DNA from: a virus
Lineage: Duplodnaviria > Heunggongvirae > Uroviricota > Caudoviricetes
Reading direction: 5' to 3' (one strand)
DNA length: 18,052 nucleotides
Virus record (IMG/VR): IMGVR_UViG_2663762648_000009
Part shown: piece by piece, positions 67 through 17,469 of the stretch
How the letters are laid out: each line of letters starts with the position of its first letter
Position numbering within the stretch: the first letter of the stretch is position 1
Notes under the pieces: model-generated
What the model saw: the letters and a program-made list of their open reading frames with translations, nothing else
Database searches by the model: none
What the model was told of the DNA's origin: nothing
Position numbers and translations under genes: made by a program

Positions 67-6022
<5,956 letters not shown>

Positions 6023-6212
6023 GCTTACCTTCCCTGAACGAGCTAACATAAATGCGCCCTTTCTAGCACAGCGAAAAAATGTAAATACTGATAGCAATAC
6101 GATTGAAAATTAATAACTTTTCGTTAGGCAGTTTTGGGTGTGAGTTGCAAGAGGGGAGACTACTGAATAACTCAAGTTTTATAATCGAGGGGAAAATGGT
6201 GATGGCGTTCAT

Positions 6213-7402: not shown

Positions 7403-7492
7403 GGAGAGATGCCGGAGCGGCTGAACGGACCGGTCTCGAAAACCGGAGTGGGGGCAACTCCACCGGGGGTTCAAATCCCCCTCTCTCCGCCA
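7403..7492 (+). tRNA. serU: tRNA-Ser (anticodon CGA), long variable arm
   Basis: GGAGAGATGCCGGAGCGGCTGAACGGACCGGTCTCGAAAACCGGAGTGGGGGCAACTCCACCGGGGGTTCAAATCCCCCTCTCTCCGCCA: 90 nt, acceptor stem GGAGAGA/TCTCTCC, anticodon loop CTCGAAA, T-arm GGGGG TTCAAAT CCCCC, encoded CCA. Confidence 0.95.
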
Positions 7493-7544
7493 AAATTCAA
7501 TCACTTACACATCATTAAGTCAGTGACAAAAATCACACTTGGAA

Positions 7545-8570
7545 TTACTTGGAATATTTTCTTGGAATATTTTCAGGTAACGGGACATCAAGTGTTGGTG
7601 AAACTTTAACCTTCCTGTCATAGATTAGCACTTGCCCTTCGGTTTTGTGACCAGAGAAAAGTTGCTTATCCCGGCTGCTTCCTTCATAGTCTGAAATTCC
7701 TTTCGCCTTCAGATCATGAAAGGTGAAGTCGGTTAAAATACCTGAAATTTTGCCTGCGCGATTTCTTGCTTCTACCCACATTTCGTTAAAGCCTTTGTAC
7801 ATATATCGGTTGCCGTATTGATTGCTGATTACATAGGCGGATGTTGGTAACTGTTTTGCTTTTTCGATCGCCGCCTGTAATCGTGGACTCCATGCTTTTA
7901 TCTGTTTTTTCCCTGTTTTCCCTTGCTGGATAAAGATCCCGTCGTTTCCAATCTGCTCCCATTTCAGCGATAACACATCGGAAACCCTCGCTGCACACAG
8001 ATAGGCAATTTCCATTGCGATAAAAACAGGAAGAGGTGCAACGCTTAATACTGCCTGGTATTCTTTGTCGGTTACATATCGTTCGCGGTTTTTGGCCTTG
8101 AATTTACTTACACCTGCACATGGGTTAGCCTTCACGTACCCTCGCTCATACCCCCAACTGTAAACACGGGACATACTGCTTTTTTCATGGTTGGCTTGCG
8201 TTTTACTTTGCTCCCCTCTTTTGTCCATGTATCGACGGATGTGTTCTGGTTTTATGGAATCCGCTGGTACCTTACTGAATACGGCAAGCAACTTTTTTTG
8301 ATGTTGCAGATAATCTTTTTGTGTTCTTGGACTAAGGTCACTGTAATAGGCGCTGGCGAGGAATTTTTCCCACAAGCGACCGAATGTTATTGCACGATCG
8401 CGATTATCTACAGTTTCCTCATACTTTTTCCATAAAGCAGCTAAACCATCCTTGATGGCGGTTAGTGTGACAGATTCTCTGGATGTTGGTTTCCATACAT
8501 AACTATATTTATTTGGGTATACATTTGGAGGTAATTTTTCGTGTTCAGGATTTTTCCTTCGTCTTCCCAT
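7545..8570 (-). CDS. int: Prophage tyrosine integrase (lambda Int family)
   Basis: 341 aa with tyrosine-recombinase signature segments: AARVSDVLSLKW (Arg), HDLKAKGISD (His), GHKTEGQVLIYDRK (Tyr). ATG at 8568..8570 overlaps the stop of the upstream small gene (ATGA). Gene ends 53 nt from the tRNA-Ser 3' end, the typical prophage attachment arrangement. Confidence 0.9.
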   Translation of the reverse strand: MGRRRKNPEHEKLPPNVYPNKYSYVWKPTSRESVTLTAIKDGLAALWKKYEETVDNRDRAITFGRLWEKFLASAYYSDLSPRTQKDYLQHQKKLLAVFSKVPADSIKPEHIRRYMDKRGEQSKTQANHEKSSMSRVYSWGYERGYVKANPCAGVSKFKAKNRERYVTDKEYQAVLSVAPLPVFIAMEIAYLCAARVSDVLSLKWEQIGNDGIFIQQGKTGKKQIKAWSPRLQAAIEKAKQLPTSAYVISNQYGNRYMYKGFNEMWVEARNRAGKISGILTDFTFHDLKAKGISDYEGSSRDKQLFSGHKTEGQVLIYDRKVKVSPTLDVPLPENIPRKYSK

Positions 8571-8831: not shown

Positions 8832-11303
8832 TTAAAAATCAGCCTGACTCGGGATCAGTTTTTGCCAGATAACTGAAACGTATTTTGCCTGGTAACGGGC
8901 GTCATCAAGTGCATTATGGCGCTCACCTTCGAATGGAATAGCCGTTCTGGCATCGAAGTCTATGGCTTTCCCCAGCTCAACGATTGTGCGTACATCGCGA
9001 TCGTTGTAGTAACGCCACGGGCAGGGGATCCCCTGCCGTTCGTATGAACGGCGCAAAATCGTGTTGTCGAAGTTGGCTCCATTTCCCCAGACCTGAACAA
9101 AAAATTCACCGGAGTTTTCGTCGATAAATTCCCGCAATTGTAACAGTGCATCATCTAACGGGATTTCATCGGTCATAATGGCAGATTGCGCTTCGCGTGA
9201 TTGCTTAAGCCACCATTTAATGGTGTCCCGATCAATGACTCCGCCAGCAGTTTCCAGATCGATAGTCTTACTAAATTCCGGTCCCATATCTCCGGTTTGC
9301 GGATCGAAAAATATTGCACCTATTGAGATGATCGGGGCATCAGGATTTTTTCCCATGGTTTCAAGGTCGATCATTAGATGGTCACACGTCCTGCTGGTGG
9401 ATGTGATTTCTTGATGACCGTTCACCTTAATTGAGTGATCTGCCGTCTCGCCAGTTTCATTATCGCTATCGTGATGCTGATTGCCGCCAGTGTTCTCCTT
9501 GTGTGGATGTTCAGCGCCTTCCATTTCCTCCGGATCATCTTCCTGAACTTCAGGCTGATACTCTTTATCGAATGTTTCCTGGTATGTTGCGTCGCCCATT
9601 ACCGCGCCACAATCAGGGCAGTTGCCACCACCGCTTTGACCGCAGGCGGTGCAGACTTTTTCCGGTTCCTGTTGCGCTACTGGCTCAGGTTGTTTCGTTT
9701 CTGGCTCGTTTTGTAACGCATTTGGGCTGTTTTGTTCCGCTTTCTGGCCGTTCTGTTCCGTTTCTTGTTGGTTCTGATTCACTGAATCGCGGGTTTCAAT
9801 CCCCTTCACCCATTTCGGATCATTCGGGTCGCTAATCCCTGCAACAAATTCACCACGTGATACAGCAAGCAACTTATTGGCGTCAGGCTGGCTGATATTG
9901 GCTGCCTGCATAATTTTGTTTACTTCGTCAGCGGTAACTTTTACCGGCTCTGGTTGTGCGATCGTGTCAGATGCACCAGTATTTTGTTGTGAACCTGAGT
10001 ATGTACTGTTTTTGCGGGCGAAATATTCTTCTTTCGTGATTTCAGTAGCCCCGGCAGCCAGCGCCTTATCCAGACCAGAAAGTTTGTTTGCGCGACCGTA
10101 TTTTTCGCCATCCTTGTCGGTGAAGAGGAAGTAGAACGGCCCTTCACGCTCTACAGATGGTTCGACTTCCACTTTGCATTCGGTTTTTTCGTTGTCCGGA
10201 ATTGCCGTTTCCACTGCATCAGTTTCTGGTACTGGCGACGAGAGAGTATCAGTTGCGCTCTGATTTCTTCCTTCATCTTCAAACACGCCCTTTGTAGTCA
10301 GGTATTCAGTAATGTATTTGTTCAGTGCCACAGGATCTTTGTGAATGTCGATCGGACGTTCACGGACAAGGCCAAAAATAGTCTGGCGGTCGTAGCGAAG
10401 GGCATCAGGCTGTTTGCGCATTGATGCCGAGATACGCTTCCAGTCTTCGCGGCCGTTGTCGATAACTTCATTTTTTGCCCAGCGATGGATGCTGCCGTCA
10501 ATGTTTCCGGCATCCACATCACCAGGCCAGAGAGCGTAGGCCAGTTCGTCATCCAGTGTTTTCCATGTCTGCTTGTATTCGCGATGAATGGCAGCAATGA
10601 CCGGGCTGATTTTTCCTGTTGAATTTTCAGTGTACTGTTGATTGGCTCTGGCGCGGGCGAGATCAACAACAGACGTGTATTTTCCGGTTTCCTTGCGTTC
10701 ACCTTCGCGACGTTTTTTCCAGATGCGCATCTCTGCCTGAATTTCGGGCCATTTAGCACCAGGAATACATTTATGCTTAACCCACCCAATGGCGTGCAAC
10801 TTAAGCTCCGGATACATGGCGTTAACTTCTGGCATTTTCATCAACGCTTCAACGATATGTCCGTCGAATGTTGCCATGTCTTCCTGCAACAATTCCTGTG
10901 CGCTAATAACCATATCAACGGTGATGTTTTCACATGTGTCGAACTTAACCATGACAGCGTTCTGTACTTCAGGGGCCAGCTTGTCAAAAGTGACGTTCAT
11001 CGGATCGGATTCAGTCTCAACCGGGACAAAAGAAGCAGACTCCTCATCCCAGCGGTTTTCCTGCATATATTCAGCATCCCATGAATCGAGGGCAGGGCGG
11101 GGTATGCCAGGTTTATCCTCGCAGACAATAAATTTATAAGCGCAGTCCTGAGCAGCCGGATAATGTTCCAGGAATTGCCAGTGAAATTTTGCGCGGGCGC
11201 GACATTCATCACCGGCTTCAATGGTAGTGGCTACAGCGACTGCACCTTCTTCCTTTATTGCCTGTTCGTCCGGAATGGCGGCGCAAATAAAGACTTTACT
11301 CAT
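8832..11303 (-). CDS. Prophage exonuclease: C-terminal DEDDh (DnaQ-like) 3'-5' exonuclease domain, central Cys4 zinc ribbon, N-terminal region of unknown function
   Basis: 823-aa ORF. C-terminus carries Exo I/II/III-like motifs (MIDLETMG, WGNGANFDNTIL, HNALDDARYQ); centre has CTACGQSGGGNCPDCG. Such proteins are often auto-annotated exodeoxyribonuclease VIII, but the motifs seen are DnaQ-like rather than RecE-like PD-(D/E)XK. ATG 11301..11303. Confidence 0.85.
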   Translation of the reverse strand: MSKVFICAAIPDEQAIKEEGAVAVATTIEAGDECRARAKFHWQFLEHYPAAQDCAYKFIVCEDKPGIPRPALDSWDAEYMQENRWDEESASFVPVETESDPMNVTFDKLAPEVQNAVMVKFDTCENITVDMVISAQELLQEDMATFDGHIVEALMKMPEVNAMYPELKLHAIGWVKHKCIPGAKWPEIQAEMRIWKKRREGERKETGKYTSVVDLARARANQQYTENSTGKISPVIAAIHREYKQTWKTLDDELAYALWPGDVDAGNIDGSIHRWAKNEVIDNGREDWKRISASMRKQPDALRYDRQTIFGLVRERPIDIHKDPVALNKYITEYLTTKGVFEDEGRNQSATDTLSSPVPETDAVETAIPDNEKTECKVEVEPSVEREGPFYFLFTDKDGEKYGRANKLSGLDKALAAGATEITKEEYFARKNSTYSGSQQNTGASDTIAQPEPVKVTADEVNKIMQAANISQPDANKLLAVSRGEFVAGISDPNDPKWVKGIETRDSVNQNQQETEQNGQKAEQNSPNALQNEPETKQPEPVAQQEPEKVCTACGQSGGGNCPDCGAVMGDATYQETFDKEYQPEVQEDDPEEMEGAEHPHKENTGGNQHHDSDNETGETADHSIKVNGHQEITSTSRTCDHLMIDLETMGKNPDAPIISIGAIFFDPQTGDMGPEFSKTIDLETAGGVIDRDTIKWWLKQSREAQSAIMTDEIPLDDALLQLREFIDENSGEFFVQVWGNGANFDNTILRRSYERQGIPCPWRYYNDRDVRTIVELGKAIDFDARTAIPFEGERHNALDDARYQAKYVSVIWQKLIPSQADF

Positions 11304-11398
11304 TTTGTTTTAACCTCATTACAGATTTCAGGGTGAACGAATCCCTGCCATTGCTGGCATTTTTAATCCGTTGGTATGGCGTTAATATGGCTGGCGGG

Positions 11399-11587
11399 TT
11401 ATCCAGCCGGTATTTCGTTATTCAGGTTCAGCGATACTTTTTTTAACGGGAGGCATTCACCGGGGATTTTTTGTTCGTCCCTTACCTGAATGCAGGATGA
11501 CTTACTGTCATAAATTCCGGTAATCACATTTTGTGGCTCACCCGTTATAAGAAAAACGGTCATCACCAGTGCAAATGCTGAAGTCAC
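11399..11587 (-). CDS. ydfD: YdfD-like small protein with N-terminal hydrophobic/signal segment (Qin prophage lysis-type protein family)
   Basis: 62 aa (MTSAFALVMTVFLITGEPQNV...EQKIPGECLPLKKV...EIPAG). GTG start overlaps the dicB stop (GTGA). Position immediately after dicB matches the Qin dicBF operon order. Name from recalled similarity. Confidence 0.6.
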   Translation of the reverse strand: MTSAFALVMTVFLITGEPQNVITGIYDSKSSCIQVRDEQKIPGECLPLKKVSLNLNNEIPAG

Positions 11588-11772
11588 TGCTGTTCTCCGA
11601 TAATACCAAGTTCAAGAAGGGCAATTCTGGAAAGTATGGAATTATCATTGAGAAGATAAGGTTCATATTTTCTCATCTTAATGGCATCTTCCGTAAACTC
11701 CCGGTTACTGAGCAGAACACCAATATCAAAACAACCTTCAGACGTATTAACGTTTGGTAATAACGTTTCCAT
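11584..11772 (-). CDS. dicB: DicB-like cell division inhibitor
   Basis: 62 aa from ATG 11770..11772 (METLLPNVNTSEGCFDIGVLLSNREFTEDAI...), GAGGA 7 nt upstream. N-terminal half matches recalled K-12 DicB (METLLPNVNTSEGCF...), C-terminal half diverged. Lies ~170 nt downstream of dicF. Confidence 0.75.
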   Translation of the reverse strand: METLLPNVNTSEGCFDIGVLLSNREFTEDAIKMRKYEPYLLNDNSILSRIALLELGIIGEQQ

Positions 11773-11946
11773 TATCGCGTCCTCAACAATGAATTTTGTG
11801 ATGCGGTGCCTGGTGCCTCCAGGTGACGTTAACCAGTTAACAATTAACGCCGGATACAGAGAATCCACCCATAACACTGTTTTTGGTTTTAACTGTTCCG
11901 CGTGCGCTCAGCCGCATTCACCACATCACAAAATTCACTTTAAAAA

Positions 11947-11999
11947 GGGCGGCAGAGCAGTCACGGAGTAAAACTGATACCGCCAAACGTCACCAGAAA
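11947..11999 (-). ncRNA. dicF: DicF small RNA (copy 1)
   Basis: Minus strand reads TTTCTGGTGACGTTTGGCGGTATCAGTTTTACTCCGTGACTGCTCTGCCGCCC followed by TTTTT, matching the 53-nt DicF sRNA as recalled. Operon context (ydfABC upstream, dicB downstream) agrees. Confidence 0.85.
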
Positions 12000-12131
12000 A
12001 TTGATAACAGAGGGCGTTGCAGCGGAGTTGTCACTTAAGCGTATGGTCAACCTGACAACCCGGTGTCCTCAACGGAGGTGATGCTGCCAACTTACTGATT
12101 TAGTGTATGATGGTGTTTTTGAGGTGCTCCA

Positions 12132-12407
12132 GTGGCTTCTGTTTCTATCAGCTGTCCCTCCTGTTCAGCTACTGACGGGGTGGTGCGTAACGGCAAAAGC
12201 ACTGCCGGACATCAGCGCTATCTCTGCTCTCACTGCCGTAAAACATGGCAACTGCAGTTCACTTACACCGCTTCTCAACCCGGTACGCACCAGAAAATCA
12301 TTGATATGGCCATGAATGGCGTTGGATGCCGGGCAACTGCACGCATTATGGGCGTTGGCCTCAACACGATTTTACGTCACTTAAAAAACTCAGGCCGCAG
12401 TCGGTAA
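12132..12407 (+). CDS. insA: IS1 InsA (transposition inhibitor / N-terminal part of InsAB' transposase)
   Basis: 91 aa [37 protein letters not shown]..., zinc-finger CxxC...CxxC, canonical IS1 InsA. Confidence 0.9.
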
Positions 12408-12829
12408 CCTCGCGCATACAGCCGGGCAGTGACGTCATCGTCTGCGCGGAAATGGACGAACAGTGGGGCTATGTCGGGGCTAAATCGCGCCAGCGCTGGC
12501 TGTTTTACGCGTATGACAGTCTCCGGAAGACGGTTGTTGCGCACGTATTCGGTGAACGCACTATGGCGACGCTGGGGCGTCTTATGAGCCTGCTGTCACC
12601 CTTTGACGTGGTGATATGGATGACGGATGGCTGGCCGCTGTATGAATCCCGCCTGAAGGGAAAGCTGCACGTAATCAGCAAGCGATATACGCAGCGAATT
12701 GAGCGGCATAACCTGAATCTGAGGCAGCACCTGGCACGGCTGGGACGGAAGTCGCTGTCGTTCTCAAAATCGGTGGAGCTGCATGACAAAGTCATCGGGC
12801 ATTATCTGAACATAAAACACTATCAATAA
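12326..12829 (+). CDS. insB: IS1 InsB reading frame (expressed as InsAB' fusion by -1 frameshift)
   Basis: 167-aa ORF in the -1 frame relative to insA, overlapping it; canonical IS1 organisation. Confidence 0.85.
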
Positions 12830-13314
12830 GTTGGAGTCATTACCAACCGGAAAGTCTCCATGGTACAGACCCGTGCGCCATCAGGAACGGTTTCGGTGAA
12901 TCTGATGTTGCCGCGTTCGTCGAAGTGAACAACCAGGGTGCGGCCATCGCCTGGAATTATTTTGTCAGTGGGTGGGGTGTTATTCTGGCGCAGTTCGGCC
13001 TCCATGCGATCGAACTCAGCAATGTAGGCTTCTTTAAATGCAGCGGCTTTTTTGCCAGTGAATCCCATCACCAGGAAAACGAAGCCGTTTTTGGTGATTT
13101 GGTACATCGGGCGTTTTTCGCCTTTGGCGTCAGTGTAGGTGACGTCCTCAAAATTGAGGGCGTTAAATTCAGGTGAGCATTCAGTATTTGCGATGGCACG
13201 TAACACATTGTCGTGACGCTTGCCAAAGAACTCTGCGATCGCAATAGACGTAGTGACAGCGCGACCATTTTCGATGGTTACGTCAGGGTGAGAAAGGGCA
13301 GGGATAGTAGCCAT
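12823..13314 (-). pseudogene. Rha-family phage regulatory protein (antirepressor-like), 3' end truncated by IS1
   Basis: ORF from ATG 13312..13314 (MATIPALSHPDVTIENGRAVTTSIAIAEFFGKRHDNVLRAIANTE...), GAGGA 7 nt upstream; N-terminal region resembles the Rha domain. The reading frame runs into the IS1 right end at 12844/12845 and its last codons (VMTPTY-stop) are IS1 sequence, so the native C-terminus is missing. Confidence 0.7.
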
Positions 13315-13483
13315 GATGGCATCCTCGAGTGATAAGTTAATTAACTCACCACCGAGGTTTTCCACGACCATAAGGGTGGTGAGACGTACAGGGGTGGAAA
13401 TACCGGTCACTCGAGAACCCGGCCAGTCTTGCGACTGCCCTGCACATCCCACCATAATTTGAATGGAGCTGTGCATTACGCAT

Positions 13484-13508
13484 AAAAAAACCGCTTCAGC
13501 GCGGCTAT
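13484..13508 (-). terminator. Possible weak intrinsic terminator
   Basis: On the minus strand a short GC stem (CCGC/GCGG, plus 13491..13504) is followed by seven T (plus 13484..13490). Stem is only 4-5 bp. Confidence 0.35.
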
Positions 13509-13512
13509 GCGC

Positions 13513-13611
13513 TCAAGTAACGTTCGGGTTTCCACGCCCGGCACCCGTTTTATAAGGTGCAGGTGCACTATAATTCCACCCGTTCTGGTTTTCAATAGCT
13601 ACATTCAACAT
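13513..13611 (-). CDS. Hypothetical 32-aa ORF downstream of dicF copy 2
   Basis: ATG 13609..13611 with AGGAAAGAG upstream (MLNVAIENQNGWNYSAPAPYKTGAGRGNPNVT), followed by the T-tract hairpin. Occupies the place dicB has in the other copies. Very short, no recognisable family. Confidence 0.3.
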   Translation of the reverse strand: MLNVAIENQNGWNYSAPAPYKTGAGRGNPNVT

Positions 13612-13794
13612 TTTCTCTTTCCTTTCATCACCGAAGTGAACTTTGTTGATGCGGTGCCTGGTGCCTCCAGGTGACGTTAACCAGTTAACAATTAACGCCG
13701 GATACAGAGAATCCACCCATAACACTGTTTTTGGTTTTAACTGTTCCGCGTGCGCTCAGCCGCATTCACCACATCACAAAATTCACTTTAAAAA

Positions 13795-13847
13795 GGGCGG
13801 CAGAGCAGTCACGGAGTAAAACTGATACCGCCAAACGTCACCAGAAA
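13795..13847 (-). ncRNA. dicF: DicF small RNA (copy 2, in a diverged context)
   Basis: Same 53-nt DicF sequence. Flanks are identical to copy 1 from about 13647 to 13925, then continue to about 13970 with three substitutions relative to copy 3. Downstream (minus) it is followed by the small ORF and the Rha-like gene instead of dicB. Confidence 0.8.
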
Positions 13848-14040
13848 ATTGATAACAGAGGGCGTTGCAGCGGAGTTGTCACTTAAGCGTATGGTCAACC
13901 TGACAACCCGGTGTCCTCAACGGGGAAGGAATAACTCCGCCATACTTACCGCCGCGTCATTTCGCGTTGTGTGCCTGCTTTTAACCACGTCAGGCGAGGT
14001 GGTATCCTTCTTATCCCGAATAACCAAGAAGGAAATCTAT

Positions 14041-14086
14041 ATGACTAAAGAAGAATTTGTCTCTTATATTTTTGATAAAACGGTTG
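14041..14086 (+). pseudogene. 5' fragment of an unknown gene interrupted by IS1
   Basis: AAGGAA then 6 nt then ATG at 14041; 15 codons (MTKEEFVSYIFDKTV) before the IS1 left end at 14087. No continuation found in the window. Confidence 0.35.
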
Positions 14087-14141
14087 GGTGATGCTGCCAA
14101 CTTACTGATTTAGTGTATGATGGTGTTTTTGAGGTGCTCCA

Positions 14142-14417
14142 GTGGCTTCTGTTTCTATCAGCTGTCCCTCCTGTTCAGCTACTGACGGGGTGGTGCGTAA
14201 CGGCAAAAGCACTGCCGGACATCAGCGCTATCTCTGCTCTCACTGCCGTAAAACATGGCAACTGCAGTTCACTTACACCGCTTCTCAACCCGGTACGCAC
14301 CAGAAAATCATTGATATGGCCATGAATGGCGTTGGATGCCGGGCAACTGCACGCATTATGGGCGTTGGCCTCAACACGATTTTACGTCACTTAAAAAACT
14401 CAGGCCGCAGTCGGTAA
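14142..14417 (+). CDS. insA: IS1 InsA (second copy)
   Basis: Identical 91-aa ORF to 12132..12407. Confidence 0.9.
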
Positions 14418-14839
14418 CCTCGCGCATACAGCCGGGCAGTGACGTCATCGTCTGCGCGGAAATGGACGAACAGTGGGGCTATGTCGGGGCTAAATCGCGC
14501 CAGCGCTGGCTGTTTTACGCGTATGACAGTCTCCGGAAGACGGTTGTTGCGCACGTATTCGGTGAACGCACTATGGCGACGCTGGGGCGTCTTATGAGCC
14601 TGCTGTCACCCTTTGACGTGGTGATATGGATGACGGATGGCTGGCCGCTGTATGAATCCCGCCTGAAGGGAAAGCTGCACGTAATCAGCAAGCGATATAC
14701 GCAGCGAATTGAGCGGCATAACCTGAATCTGAGGCAGCACCTGGCACGGCTGGGACGGAAGTCGCTGTCGTTCTCAAAATCGGTGGAGCTGCATGACAAA
14801 GTCATCGGGCATTATCTGAACATAAAACACTATCAATAA
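14336..14839 (+). CDS. insB: IS1 InsB reading frame (second copy)
   Basis: Identical 167-aa ORF to 12326..12829; ends 6 bp before the truncation point. Confidence 0.85.
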
Positions 14840-14845
14840 GTTGGA

Positions 14846-14912
14846 CGACTGCACCTTCTTCCTTTATTGCCTGTTCGTCCGGAATGGCGGCGCAAATAAA
14901 GACTTTACTCAT
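14846..14912 (-). pseudogene. Orphan 5' fragment of the exonuclease gene (first 22 codons plus upstream region) fused to the IS1 end
   Basis: Sequence equals 11237..11303 (MSKVFICAAIPDEQAIKEEGAV); the reading frame then runs into antisense IS1. Confidence 0.6.
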
Positions 14913-15007
14913 TTTGTTTTAACCTCATTACAGATTTCAGGGTGAACGAATCCCTGCCATTGCTGGCATTTTTAATCCGTTGGTATGGCGTTAATATGGC
15001 TGGCGGG

Positions 15008-15196
15008 TTATCCAGCCGGTATTTCGTTATTCAGGTTCAGCGATACTTTTTTTAACGGGAGGCATTCACCGGGGATTTTTTGTTCGTCCCTTACCTGAAT
15101 GCAGGATGACTTACTGTCATAAATTCCGGTAATCACATTTTGTGGCTCACCCGTTATAAGAAAAACGGTCATCACCAGTGCAAATGCTGAAGTCAC
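15008..15196 (-). CDS. ydfD: YdfD-like small protein (second copy)
   Basis: Identical to 11399..11587. Confidence 0.6.
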   Translation of the reverse strand: MTSAFALVMTVFLITGEPQNVITGIYDSKSSCIQVRDEQKIPGECLPLKKVSLNLNNEIPAG

Positions 15197-15381
15197 TGCT
15201 GTTCTCCGATAATACCAAGTTCAAGAAGGGCAATTCTGGAAAGTATGGAATTATCATTGAGAAGATAAGGTTCATATTTTCTCATCTTAATGGCATCTTC
15301 CGTAAACTCCCGGTTACTGAGCAGAACACCAATATCAAAACAACCTTCAGACGTATTAACGTTTGGTAATAACGTTTCCAT
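15193..15381 (-). CDS. dicB: DicB-like cell division inhibitor (second copy)
   Basis: Identical to 11584..11772. Confidence 0.75.
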   Translation of the reverse strand: METLLPNVNTSEGCFDIGVLLSNREFTEDAIKMRKYEPYLLNDNSILSRIALLELGIIGEQQ

Positions 15382-15555
15382 TATCGCGTCCTCAACAATG
15401 AATTTTGTGATGCGGTGCCTGGTGCCTCCAGGTGACGTTAACCAGTTAACAATTAACGCCGGATACAGAGAATCCACCCATAACACTGTTTTTGGTTTTA
15501 ACTGTTCCGCGTGCGCTCAGCCGCATTCACCACATCACAAAATTCACTTTAAAAA

Positions 15556-15608
15556 GGGCGGCAGAGCAGTCACGGAGTAAAACTGATACCGCCAAACGTC
15601 ACCAGAAA
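15556..15608 (-). ncRNA. dicF: DicF small RNA (copy 3, in the intact operon context)
   Basis: Same 53-nt sequence. This copy keeps the uninterrupted leader back to ydfC (15609..15946), including an upstream stem GTTGTCA ... TGACAAC. Confidence 0.85.
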
Positions 15609-15946
15609 ATTGATAACAGAGGGCGTTGCAGCGGAGTTGTCACTTAAGCGTATGGTCAACCTGACAACCCGGTGTCCTCAACGGAGGAAGGAATAACCCC
15701 GCCATACTTACCGCCGCGCCATTTCGCGGAGTGCCACAACCGGAAGCGCACGGTCGAACTAAATTTAACGACACCGTACAGAGAGACCAATTTCGCCGTG
15801 CGCTTTCGCTTTATGCCCTGACTTTTCAGGGACATATCCTTTCAGTAAACTGTCAGTGCCGGATGTTCACCCGTGTCCGGCGCACGCACTCCACCTGACC
15901 CGTGGAGAACTCCTTAATTACCAACCTTAGCTTCGTTGGTTAGCTA

Positions 15947-16165
15947 TTAACGCGGGTATGTAACCATTCTGGCAATGCTTAATGCCGCTGCTTTTTCCAG
16001 CCTGGTGATATCCTGCTCCAGAGCGGACAGATTTTCAGCCTGCTTAGTCCTGGCTTCATTGGCCCATTTCAGATCCTGCACTGCATTAATTTTCTGGCGC
16101 ATCCACTCATAAAGTTCATCATCGGTATAGTCTGGCGCGATGATGACGGGTTCTCGTTTCTGCAT
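15947..16165 (-). CDS. ydfC: YdfC-like small prophage protein
   Basis: 72 aa (MQKREPVIIAPDYTDDELYEWMRQ...), GAGGA 7 nt upstream of the ATG. Size and position (third gene, upstream of dicF) match Qin ydfC. Confidence 0.65.
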   Translation of the reverse strand: MQKREPVIIAPDYTDDELYEWMRQKINAVQDLKWANEARTKQAENLSALEQDITRLEKAAALSIARMVTYPR

Positions 16166-16194
16166 ACTGATTCCTCGCGGTGCTGTTTCGCTTA

Positions 16195-16323
16195 TCAGCC
16201 GTTAGATTTTGCCGAACTGGAAAGCGCCTGTTTAAATTCGTTGAAGCTGAGAGTTTCTTCGCCTTCGGCAAGACCATCGAAGTATTCTTCGTAAGCCTTT
16301 TCCATGATTGTGTCGAAATCCAT
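16195..16323 (-). CDS. ydfB: YdfB-like small prophage protein
   Basis: 42-aa ORF below the ORF-track cutoff, found by hand: MDFDTIMEKAYEEYFDGLAEGEETLSFNEFKQALSSSAKSNG. ATG 16321..16323 lies 1 nt after the ydfA stop; good codon usage. Size and order match Qin ydfB. Confidence 0.55.
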   Translation of the reverse strand: MDFDTIMEKAYEEYFDGLAEGEETLSFNEFKQALSSSAKSNG

Positions 16324-16752: not shown

Positions 16753-17469
16753 TCAGTCTAAGTATTGATGTATTTGTGAAACTTTACCTTTAATGGTGTA
16801 ACCACCATTCAGTTCGATGGGTTTGTAAAGCGGATTCAGTGACAACAGATAGATGTTTGGTCCGTCAATCGCAACTTTTTTTAGTGTTACGTTTGGCGTT
16901 CCTTCCAATTGGATTAAGATTATTTTTCCCACCAGTTCTCTAATGTTACTTGAGCATGGTGTGATCAGCACGGTAGATCCGTTGGGGATGGTTGGGAGGC
17001 CGTTAGAGTTTGTCATCGCATCTCCCTCAACATGCAATAAAAAAGAGTTTTCAGCGGTTTTTGTCATGACATCAACCCAATTCTTAATACCAGGAATCTC
17101 GGTTACTGGACAACTCATATCCCAATAACCAGCCTGTTCCCACGTTAAAACGGGCAACCGGGCGATGTTGTCACTAATGTAAGGGTACTGATTCAGACGC
17201 AGATCATCGGCTTTATCGTGACCGTCCTTTCCATAAAGAATCCATTCAGGAGATTTGGAAAGCAATTTTGACAGTAGATACAAATTCTCACCGTCAGGTT
17301 TTGAAGAGCCATTTTCCCATTTTGTTACGGATACACGAGATATGCCGATTGCTTTCGCAACCTGCTGTTGGGTTAATCCAACGTCTTTTCGACGATTCCG
17401 AATACGTTCGCTGATAGTGTTTTTCATGTAACCAATGTTACTACCAAGTGATGTTGCTATGGTTGACAT
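16753..17469 (-). CDS. CI-like prophage repressor (N-terminal HTH, C-terminal LexA/S24-like domain)
   Basis: 238 aa from ATG 17467..17469 (the listed 257-aa ORF starts at a TTG that overlaps cro). HTH segment LTQQQVAKAIGISRVSVTKWENG; C-terminal region aligns by eye with lambda CI (FLLHVEGDAMT ... VTLKKV ... LLSLNPLYKP). No obvious Shine-Dalgarno, so possibly leaderless as in lambda cI. Confidence 0.85.
   Translation of the reverse strand: MSTIATSLGSNIGYMKNTISERIRNRRKDVGLTQQQVAKAIGISRVSVTKWENGSSKPDGENLYLLSKLLSKSPEWILYGKDGHDKADDLRLNQYPYISDNIARLPVLTWEQAGYWDMSCPVTEIPGIKNWVDVMTKTAENSFLLHVEGDAMTNSNGLPTIPNGSTVLITPCSSNIRELVGKIILIQLEGTPNVTLKKVAIDGPNIYLLSLNPLYKPIELNGGYTIKGKVSQIHQYLD

Follow-up and report, generated by a model that had tools for sequence, protein, structure and literature searches.

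Does a segment in which two IS1 copies and an exact 840-bp repeat bracket a piece of a second prophage represent a rearranged genome, or the way in which the sequence was assembled? The window (the whole stretch of DNA analysed, 18,052 nucleotides) is the whole of contig CXFX01000103.1 of the draft assembly GCA_001261315.1, labelled Shigella sonnei. We found this record by an exact-protein look-up of exo, and the exo protein accessions carry the name Shigella sonnei. When the public record (L015) was reverse-complemented and compared with the window, only 2 mismatches were found in 18,052 bases, at 12076 and 14845. At each of them the public record has N and the window text has A. These positions are the junction between A, the first copy of the repeat, and IS1 (12076) and the junction between the shortened IS1 and A', the second copy (14845), and thus both odd junctions coincide with assembly gaps. 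Because the two bases are N in the source record, the odd junctions are unsequenced scaffold joins, and the window consists of three contigs with scaffold gaps between them (Table 1). The apparent IS1-bracketed mosaic with an 840-bp duplication is therefore very probably three short-read contigs of a draft S. sonnei assembly, stitched over two one-base gaps, and not a rearrangement.

The conversion of N to A in the window hid the two scaffold gaps, and an assembly join then looked like a rearrangement with a "truncated" IS1 and an exact duplication. In windows taken from draft scaffolds, N positions should be kept or at least flagged. One point against an artefact is that the A shown for each N is the base of the homologous copy, which under blind substitution would be a 1-in-16 coincidence.

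Table 1. Scaffold structure and features of the window
Feature	Position	Strand	Description
Contig C1	1..12075		IS911 end (1-69), yeeJ fragments, tRNA-Asn, mtfA, tRNA-Ser(CGA) serU, then prophage int, xis, exo, ydfD, dicB, dicF
exo	8832..11303	-	823 aa, YdfE / 3'-5' exonuclease family, serU prophage; first 67 bases form the "stub" at 14846-14912
A	11237..12075		Single-copy prophage sequence written twice, closing C1 and (as 14846-15684) opening C3
dicF sRNA of serU prophage	11947..11998	-	Rfam RF00039, 76.7 bits; again at 15556-15607
Scaffold gap 1	12076..12076		N in public record, A in window
Contig C2	12077..14844		IS1 (positions 1-768), X, IS1 (positions 1-758)
IS1 copy 1	12077..12844	+	Full 768 bp; insA 12132-12407, insB' to 12829; left end abuts gap
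X, second prophage (P2) remnant	12845..14086		100% identical to X of L005 outside 13708-13874
Rha/Ash-family regulator gene	12845..13476	-	3' end removed by IS1; frame open to 12823 within IS1
C4 antisense RNA	13372-13459	-	Upstream of Rha gene; Rfam 76.7 bits, above gathering score
isrK sRNA	13484-13560	-	Upstream of Rha gene; Rfam 61.4 bits, above gathering score
A-like block in X	13647..13923		277 bp identical to A; contains dicF at 13795-13846 (-)
Interrupted ORF stub	14041..14086	+	Codons 1-15 of a 66-codon ORF that IS1 copy 2 interrupts
IS1 copy 2	14087..14844	+	Sequenced positions 1-758 only
Scaffold gap 2	14845..14845		N in public record, A in window
Contig C3	14846..18052		First 67 bp of exo, ydfD, dicB, dicF, ydfC, ydfB, ydfA (DUF1391), cI-like repressor, cro, ydaT start

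The duplication was described in an earlier sequence-only reading as 11237-12076 identical to 14846-15685 over 840 bp. The match is exact in the window text, while the sequenced identity covers only 839 bp, since 12076 is N in the record. The first 839 bases of C3 re-read the end of C1: the sequence from 14846 begins CGACTGCACC, and A ends CAACGG(A) before the left end of IS1 at 12077. The dicF gene of the serU prophage appears a second time because C1 and C3 overlap. Once the two contigs are merged, the duplication collapses to a normal single copy and the usual prophage order exo-ydfD-dicB-dicF-ydfC-ydfB-ydfA-cI is restored, an order that is also found in complete E. coli prophages and in a related 416-kb contig (L013) encoding an identical 823-aa exo. 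In L013, positions 12406-13247 match both A and A', and this single A is continuous with B, the sequence that follows A in C3. C3 is colinear with L013 at 99.9% identity. The comparison with related genomes that had been proposed for this locus thus reveals the un-rearranged, single-copy arrangement: C1 supplies the left part and C3 the right part of a single, ordinary lambdoid prophage at serU.

The middle contig has a different origin. As the sequence-only reading proposed, X comes from a dicF-containing prophage other than that of A and B: in record L003 the same X lies within another lambdoid prophage. The truncated Rha-like gene is confirmed by PF09669 and PF10554 on its 217-aa product, and the 5' stub of another gene belongs to a 66-codon ORF that we rebuilt from L003 by removing the IS1 and one copy of its target duplication. 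In many assemblies the unit IS1-X-IS1 forms a contig of its own, about 1.3 kb long (592 contigs). The IS1-flanked remnant of a second prophage, with its truncated Rha gene, C4, isrK and dicF, is real.

IS1 copy 1 is the 768-bp element that had been recognized from the letters. Its ends, GGTGATGCTGCCAACTTACTGAT and GGTAATGACTCCAACTTATTGAT, are imperfect terminal inverted repeats of about 23 bp, and the InsA/InsB domains were found on the called insA and insB' products (PF03811, PF12759 and PF03400; InsA zinc ribbon, IS1 HTH and DDE_Tnp_IS1). Its right end truncates the Rha gene at a real, conserved junction that hundreds of assemblies share; 621 blocks of the collection hold the protein that spans it. 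Copy 2 is identical to copy 1 across its 758 sequenced bases. It had been reported to lack its outer 9 bp; in the window text 14087-14845 does match the first 759 bp of copy 1, but the sequenced IS1 ends at 758, 10 nt and not 9 short of the terminus, 14845 being N. It is a contig end trimmed 10 nt before the IS1 terminus, not a truncated element. In L003 the same junction between X and IS1 leads into a complete IS1 with the 9-bp target duplication AAACGGTTG, and there the right-hand IS1 of X is a plain insertion. The internal IS1 sequences probably derive from the reads of many IS1 copies taken together.

As had been noted, the two IS1 copies have different flanks and the window lacks the 9-bp target duplication, though each copy borders a scaffold gap on one side and AAACGGTTG is present for copy 2 in L003. 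No duplication would be expected to show in the window, since on its outer side each copy meets a scaffold join where no junction was sequenced. As in an IS1 composite transposon, two directly oriented IS1 copies bracket a segment, here of 1,242 bp. Unlike in such a transposon, there is no target duplication around the unit in the window, and its outer flanks are scaffold gaps; there is thus no evidence that IS1-X-IS1 transposed into the serU prophage.

We also compared the window with the assembly of a near-identical sister strain (L014). The two differ by 2 mismatches over 12 kb, yet the pieces are chained differently, and the structure is not reproduced. The chain in L014 starts with A followed by 26 nt of X-right type. 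It continues with IS1, X-left, an A-type block and 8 nt of B type, and then with a second, diverged X. It ends with an IS1 flank from the yncL locus, one N, and A from the equivalent of 11391 only. Its gaps consist of 21, 20 and 1 N, and its duplicate is 688 bp long (840 bp in the window). Both IS1 copies in L014 start at position 11, after the 21- and 20-N runs (~10 + 1 + 10).

Searches for the odd junctions gave the same picture. Among 5,426 complete E. coli genomes, no record covered at least 80% of 10800-16200, the A/IS1 junction (J1) was absent, and the sole near-match to the IS1/A' junction (J4) was an unrelated IS1F insertion. Both junctions were absent from metagenome contigs, and J4 also from species-representative genomes.

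Repeat misassembly, which the sequence-only reading had kept as a fallback, is favoured by direct observations: the N at both junctions, the overlap of C1 and C3, the single-copy arrangement in L013 and the different chaining in L014. A paired-read scaffolder would have joined the three contigs, and a gap filler would then have extended them outwards, leaving one N per join. In this process C1 and C3 would each have been extended over the same stretch, so that 839 bases were written twice. The dicF-region repeat that C2 shares with the serU prophage may have supplied misleading read-pair links, placing C2 between C1 and C3. The "IS1 without its outer 9 bp" would reflect a contig that stops 10 nt before the IS1 terminus and borders on a gap base. 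Scaffolder joins do need read pairs, and some physical link between C2 and the prophage is possible.

The style of the accession and the 10-nt signatures suggest that Velvet, SSPACE and GapFiller were used; the exact extension steps, too, are our inference. By default, GapFiller trims 10 nt at each gap edge, and the end of IS1 copy 2 at 758 equals 768 minus 10. GapFiller also halts where alternative extensions are balanced. The paper describing the Sanger pipeline reports Velvet, SSPACE and 120 GapFiller iterations, which it calls greedy methods able to make false joins; its 299 S. sonnei assemblies average 405 contigs. The locus shares several features with repeat-induced scaffolding and gap-filling artefacts of this type: gaps of a single N and of about 20 N exactly at the odd junctions, contig ends at repeat edges, 10-nt edge-trim signatures, unique sequence written on either side of an inserted contig, and two near-identical isolates chained differently. 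No observation conflicts with such an artefact, given the software presumed here. C1 ends just where the dicF-region repeat (D1) ends on its right side and the A and X versions separate. C2 starts at IS1 position 1, and in an IS1-rich genome the sequences beyond this point are bound to differ. Less easily accounted for is the start of C3 (14846), where no repeat boundary is visible.

One sub-question concerns the A-like block inside X, and is not a rival for the whole finding. The dicF of X had been called diverged, which proved incorrect: DicF (RF00039) has 3 matches in the window, all identical and each at 76.7 bits (threshold 48), representing at most two independent loci. The diverged form is seen only in the relatives of X, which are only 82-83% identical to A over the block. 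All 35 differences between X and the copies of X in other assemblies lie within 167 bp (13708-13874). Two origins come into question for the 277-bp block: gene conversion, the diverged dicF region of the remnant having been overwritten by that of the serU prophage, or a chimera produced by gap filling through shared blocks of 61 bp and 49 bp. True conversion is possible, and we consider it somewhat the less probable of the two. X is 100% identical to the other X copies on either side of the block, including both IS1 junctions, and 100% identical to A between them; in addition, both sister assemblies interrupt the prophage contig where the repeat ends, as expected with a true long exact repeat. 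On the other hand, L014 has a full unconverted X as well as an X-left contig that runs via an A-type block into B, a greedy walk of the kind that would produce a chimera. Moreover, the boundaries of the tract fall in the shared blocks under both explanations, and C2 belongs to a scaffold already found to be unreliable. An exact A-type patch of 167-277 bp within an otherwise X-type segment resembles gene conversion between paralogous prophage segments, although on assembled sequence it is here inseparable from an assembly chimera. If conversion did occur, it left two prophages with the same dicF sRNA sequence.

A second possibility is that the duplication is an artefact and the two prophages truly recombined through their shared dicF block, giving exo-A joined to X-right-IS1 and IS1-X-left-block joined to ydfC. 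Such an inversion or translocation between prophages would account for the links used by the scaffolder. The shared block has 277 bp of exact identity in the window, and this length is enough for RecA-dependent exchange. In L014, the A-ending contig runs into 26 nt of X-right type and the X-left contig into B type. However, the contigs of the window are parental (X-left, block and X-right in C2; exo stub, A and B in C3), and L014 holds the parental combinations too. With all four combinations present in L014, greedy extension through the repeat is indicated rather than a fixed structure, and we consider this recombination unlikely.

It is more improbable still that the order of the scaffold is real, with a 2.8-kb IS1-X-IS1 in the dicF region of the serU prophage, a true 840-bp direct duplication around it and one eroded IS1 end. 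A small circle carrying A might, for instance, have undergone Campbell-type integration, or a broken IS1 end might have been joined illegitimately to the start of exo, the Ns then being gaps left unclosed. The scaffolder did give this order, and a similar one in the sister assembly; with a true duplication, a leftward walk from 14846 would also halt at an even (50:50) choice between exo and IS1, which would explain the start of C3. Against this, both junctions are unsequenced and absent from all other data searched, the duplicate of the sister strain measures 688 bp and has a different left neighbour (the yncL flank), and L013, with its identical exo, is unrearranged. Trimming of 10 nt at gap edges accounts for the IS1 end at 758 and for the IS1 starts at position 11, which a biological deletion of 9 bp does not. 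Finally, a real junction between IS1 (758/759) and exo would be unique sequence, and reads should therefore have closed the one-base gap, which stayed unclosed.

The proposal that IS1-mediated rearrangement or recombination made the duplication and the truncated IS1 is not supported, both diagnostic junctions being single-N gaps found nowhere else searched. We likewise found no support for an IS1-mediated rearrangement or composite transposon in the serU prophage, whose outer junctions are N with no sequenced junction of IS1 to a target, and a true segmental duplication, for which there is no contiguous novel junction: 14845 is N, and the 36-aa ORF across this join (J4) has no record anywhere in the protein look-up.

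With the assembly-artefact explanation, two things are left, neither of them unusual: at serU a lambdoid prophage of standard type, and the remnant of a second one, eroded by IS1 and common in Shigella short-read assemblies. Merged, C1 and C3 have the gene order of the early-left region of E. coli and Shigella lambdoid prophages of the Qin/Rac type, which L013 and the annotations of many complete E. coli genomes also show. Unlike those prophages, the one in the window sits at serU, with mtfA and yeeJ fragments next to it. The best-matching complete E. coli genomes reach only about 98% identity over the left part of the window.

An exact-protein look-up with the 823-aa product of exo, a gene of the prophage next to serU, found three places, including the public record CXFX01000103.1 (assembly GCA_001261315.1); the exo protein accessions carry the name Shigella sonnei. 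The record has 18,052 bases, as does the window, and its reverse complement departs from the window text only at 12076 and 14845, where the record has N. The first of these is the final base of segment A, the left copy of the 840-bp repeat, and the second is that of IS1-delta, the shortened second IS1. Hence the window is a scaffold made of three contigs (C1, C2 and C3, listed in the table), and the whole duplication and rearrangement finding rests on the two junctions that are N in the record. The window text shows an A at both positions, which in each case happens to be what the homologous copy has there. It seems that ambiguous bases were substituted before the sequence was first read, hiding the scaffold gaps.

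Contigs of the scaffold, DicF copies in the window and pieces of the sister scaffold L014
Feature	Position in window	Strand	Description
C1	1-12075		Contig of the scaffold
C2	12077-14844		Contig of the scaffold; IS1, X, IS1
C3	14846-18052		Contig of the scaffold
DicF	11947-11998	minus	Rfam, 76.7 bits
DicF	13795-13846	minus	Rfam, 76.7 bits
DicF	15556-15607	minus	Rfam, 76.7 bits
L014 piece 1			A, then 26 nt of X-right type, then 21 N
L014 piece 2			IS1 from position 11, X-left, A-type block, 8 nt of B type, then 20 N
L014 piece 3			IS1 from position 11, complete X with diverged dicF region, full IS1, 170 bp of the unrelated yncL locus, then 1 N
L014 piece 4			A only from the equivalent of 11391 (688-bp duplicate), then B

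As far as the window text goes, the sequence-only reading described the repeats correctly. Segments A (11237-12076) and A' (14846-15685) are exactly identical, with no extension of the identity to the left and only two more bases (GG) to the right, and the flanks of both IS1 copies differ, without a 9-bp target duplication. The first IS1 (12077-12844) is 768 bp long and has imperfect terminal inverted repeats and InsA/InsB domains. The second (14087-14845), described as lacking its outer 9 bp, does equal the first 759 bases of IS1 with no mismatches in the window text, but the copy that was actually sequenced stops at 758, base 14845 being N in the record. No microhomology was found at the join of IS1-delta and A', a point that is moot once the N is known.

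The contig ends carry signatures of assembly. C1 stops exactly where the versions of the dicF region in A and in X, the segment between the two IS1 copies, diverge. C2 starts with the first base of IS1, outside which each IS1 copy has its own flank, and stops at IS1 base 758, 10 short of the full 768. According to the GapFiller paper, gap edges are trimmed by default by 10 nucleotides each and extended by k-mer overlap, and a gap stays open if, as happens in repeats, competing extensions balance each other. The pipeline set out in the Sanger prokaryote paper uses Velvet, SSPACE and GapFiller, the last run for 120 iterations; the paper terms these methods greedy, with false joins possible, and lists 299 S. 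sonnei assemblies averaging 405 contigs. We infer from the style of the accession and from the 10-nt signatures that the window's assembly was made by a pipeline of the Velvet/SSPACE/GapFiller type. A single N marks an unclosed join in SSPACE/GapFiller output. We found no published statement of this single-N convention in the literature, which documents only the 10-nt trimming and the stop at repeats. The scaffold's left end (1-69) consists of an IS911 (IS3 family) terminus abutting the truncated yeeJ, and the contig of a sister assembly stops at the same place; an IS911 end is a typical break point in short-read assembly.

That sister assembly scaffold, L014 (CXFI01000044.1, GCA_001259355.1), has two mismatches to the window in the first 12 kb and chains the same material in another way. 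Its runs of 21 and 20 N and its IS1 starts at position 11 fit a 10 + 1 + 10 trimming. Because the length and the neighbours of the duplicate change between near-identical isolates, the duplicate is a product of assembly and not of the genome. A second implausible join occurs in the same region of L014 (reverse complement 16769-16937), where a single N separates the yncL-locus IS1 flank from sequence in the middle of ydfD.

Very probably, then, scaffold joins hidden by the replacement of N with A account for all three oddities: the 840-bp duplication, the missing target duplications and the IS1 "lacking 9 bp". Misassembly of repeats, which the sequence-only reading had kept as its fallback, is borne out, as both outer junctions are N in CXFX01000103.1 and the duplicate differs in L014. 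Three biological routes to the arrangement were rejected. Transposition of an IS1 composite into the boundary between A and B, the prophage sequence to the right of A', would leave A' unexpected, lacks a target duplication and has gaps for outer junctions. Had an IS1-X circle integrated through recombination in the dicF block, the order would be dicF, stub, IS1, Rha', dicF, from which the window differs, and unequal crossing-over between IS1 copies fails for want of an IS1 to the left of A.

C1 runs through yeeJ fragments, tRNA-Asn, mtfA and tRNA-Ser(CGA) into the prophage genes int, xis, exo, ydfD, dicB and dicF. C3 begins 67 bases inside exo, reads ydfD, dicB and dicF again, and continues with ydfC, ydfB, ydfA, a cI-like repressor, cro and ydaT. 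The two contigs overlap by 839 sequenced bases. Merging them yields a sequence colinear with a 416-kb contig from another assembly, on which the encoded exo is identical and A is single-copy and runs straight into B; the merged gene order is also annotated in complete E. coli genomes. Within 7403-8570, about 50 bp separate the integrase gene (7545-8570, minus strand) from the tRNA-Ser(CGA) gene serU, so serU is likely the attachment site of the prophage. On the same contig, the inverse-autotransporter adhesin gene yeeJ (67-6097, minus strand) is split into at least three reading frames of 1290, 383 and 358 aa, which looks like the pseudogene decay typical of Shigella. The direct repeats D4 and D5 within it (942-3447) probably reflect its repeated Big_1 domains.

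Searches for the arrangement elsewhere covered 5,426 complete E. coli genomes, a collection without Shigella. No record matched 10800-16200 with at least 80% coverage, and the two best-looking matches were ordinary prophages with unrelated IS1 copies nearby. The junction of A with IS1 was absent from these genomes, and the query for IS1 joined to A' gave only one record with both halves close, an unrelated IS1F insertion 222 nt into exo. The junction patterns had no matches in species-representative genomes or metagenome contigs, where Shigella is poorly represented, and no record exists of the 36-aa ORF that crosses the second junction. These negatives are weak alone and consistent with the remaining evidence.

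Exact matches to the protein of the frame that runs from the truncated Rha gene of X into the first IS1 occur in 621 blocks of the collection, nearly all of them contigs of ~1.3 kb, the size expected for an IS1-bounded X in short-read assemblies. A further look-up of the X unit gave 592 contigs, with Shigella flexneri and S. sonnei making up most of the named cluster members. On the 11.8-kb contig L003 (GCA_003038815.1), X sits in a different lambdoid prophage, which upholds the earlier suggestion that the window draws on two prophages. The right-hand IS1 is a plain insertion on that contig, because it is complete and has the 9-bp duplication AAACGGTTG on either side; it breaks a 66-codon ORF after codon 15. 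Judged by these sequence matches, the inner IS1/X junctions of C2 are real and X is the remnant of a second prophage. Among complete E. coli genomes the best identity to the IS1-X-IS1 unit was ~90%, without the junctions, and for lack of a junction-bearing match there the unit's true chromosomal place in this lineage was not located. The yncL flank in L014 is not trusted as that place because it was reached by a walk through a full IS1.

X had been described as carrying a diverged dicF copy, a description that does not hold for the window, where all three dicF copies are identical. Compared with X in other assemblies (contig L005), the window's X agrees fully at 12845-13707 and at 13875-14086, and all 35 differences fall inside 13708-13874. 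Over 13647-13923 it equals A exactly, and this stretch is only 82-83% identical to A in the other assemblies. We lean towards a chimera, in which the walk of the gap filler passed from X-left into A-type sequence by way of a 61-bp shared block and returned by a 49-bp one, because L014 shows such a walk in progress and holds an unconverted X. Gene conversion of the remnant's copy by the dicF region of the serU prophage is a credible second choice. A true exchange between the two prophages across the dicF block is very improbable. X-left joined to an A-type dicF region is a natural combination, present in 387 complete E. coli genomes. With an exact repeat between them, left and right sides cannot be paired from the contigs.

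The remaining biology is ordinary: a lambdoid prophage at serU and a prophage remnant eroded by IS1, the latter a recurrent feature of short-read Shigella assemblies. Rfam places a C4 antisense RNA and the Hfq-binding sRNA isrK (13372-13560) directly upstream of the truncated Rha/Ash-family gene of X. This arrangement resembles the c4-ant immunity module of the P1/P7 type, here inside a lambdoid prophage remnant. The X-carrying prophage of L003 has a ParE/PaaA2 toxin-antitoxin pair beside its repressor (1-2175) and, further along, a BsuBI/PstI-type restriction enzyme and an N6 methyltransferase.
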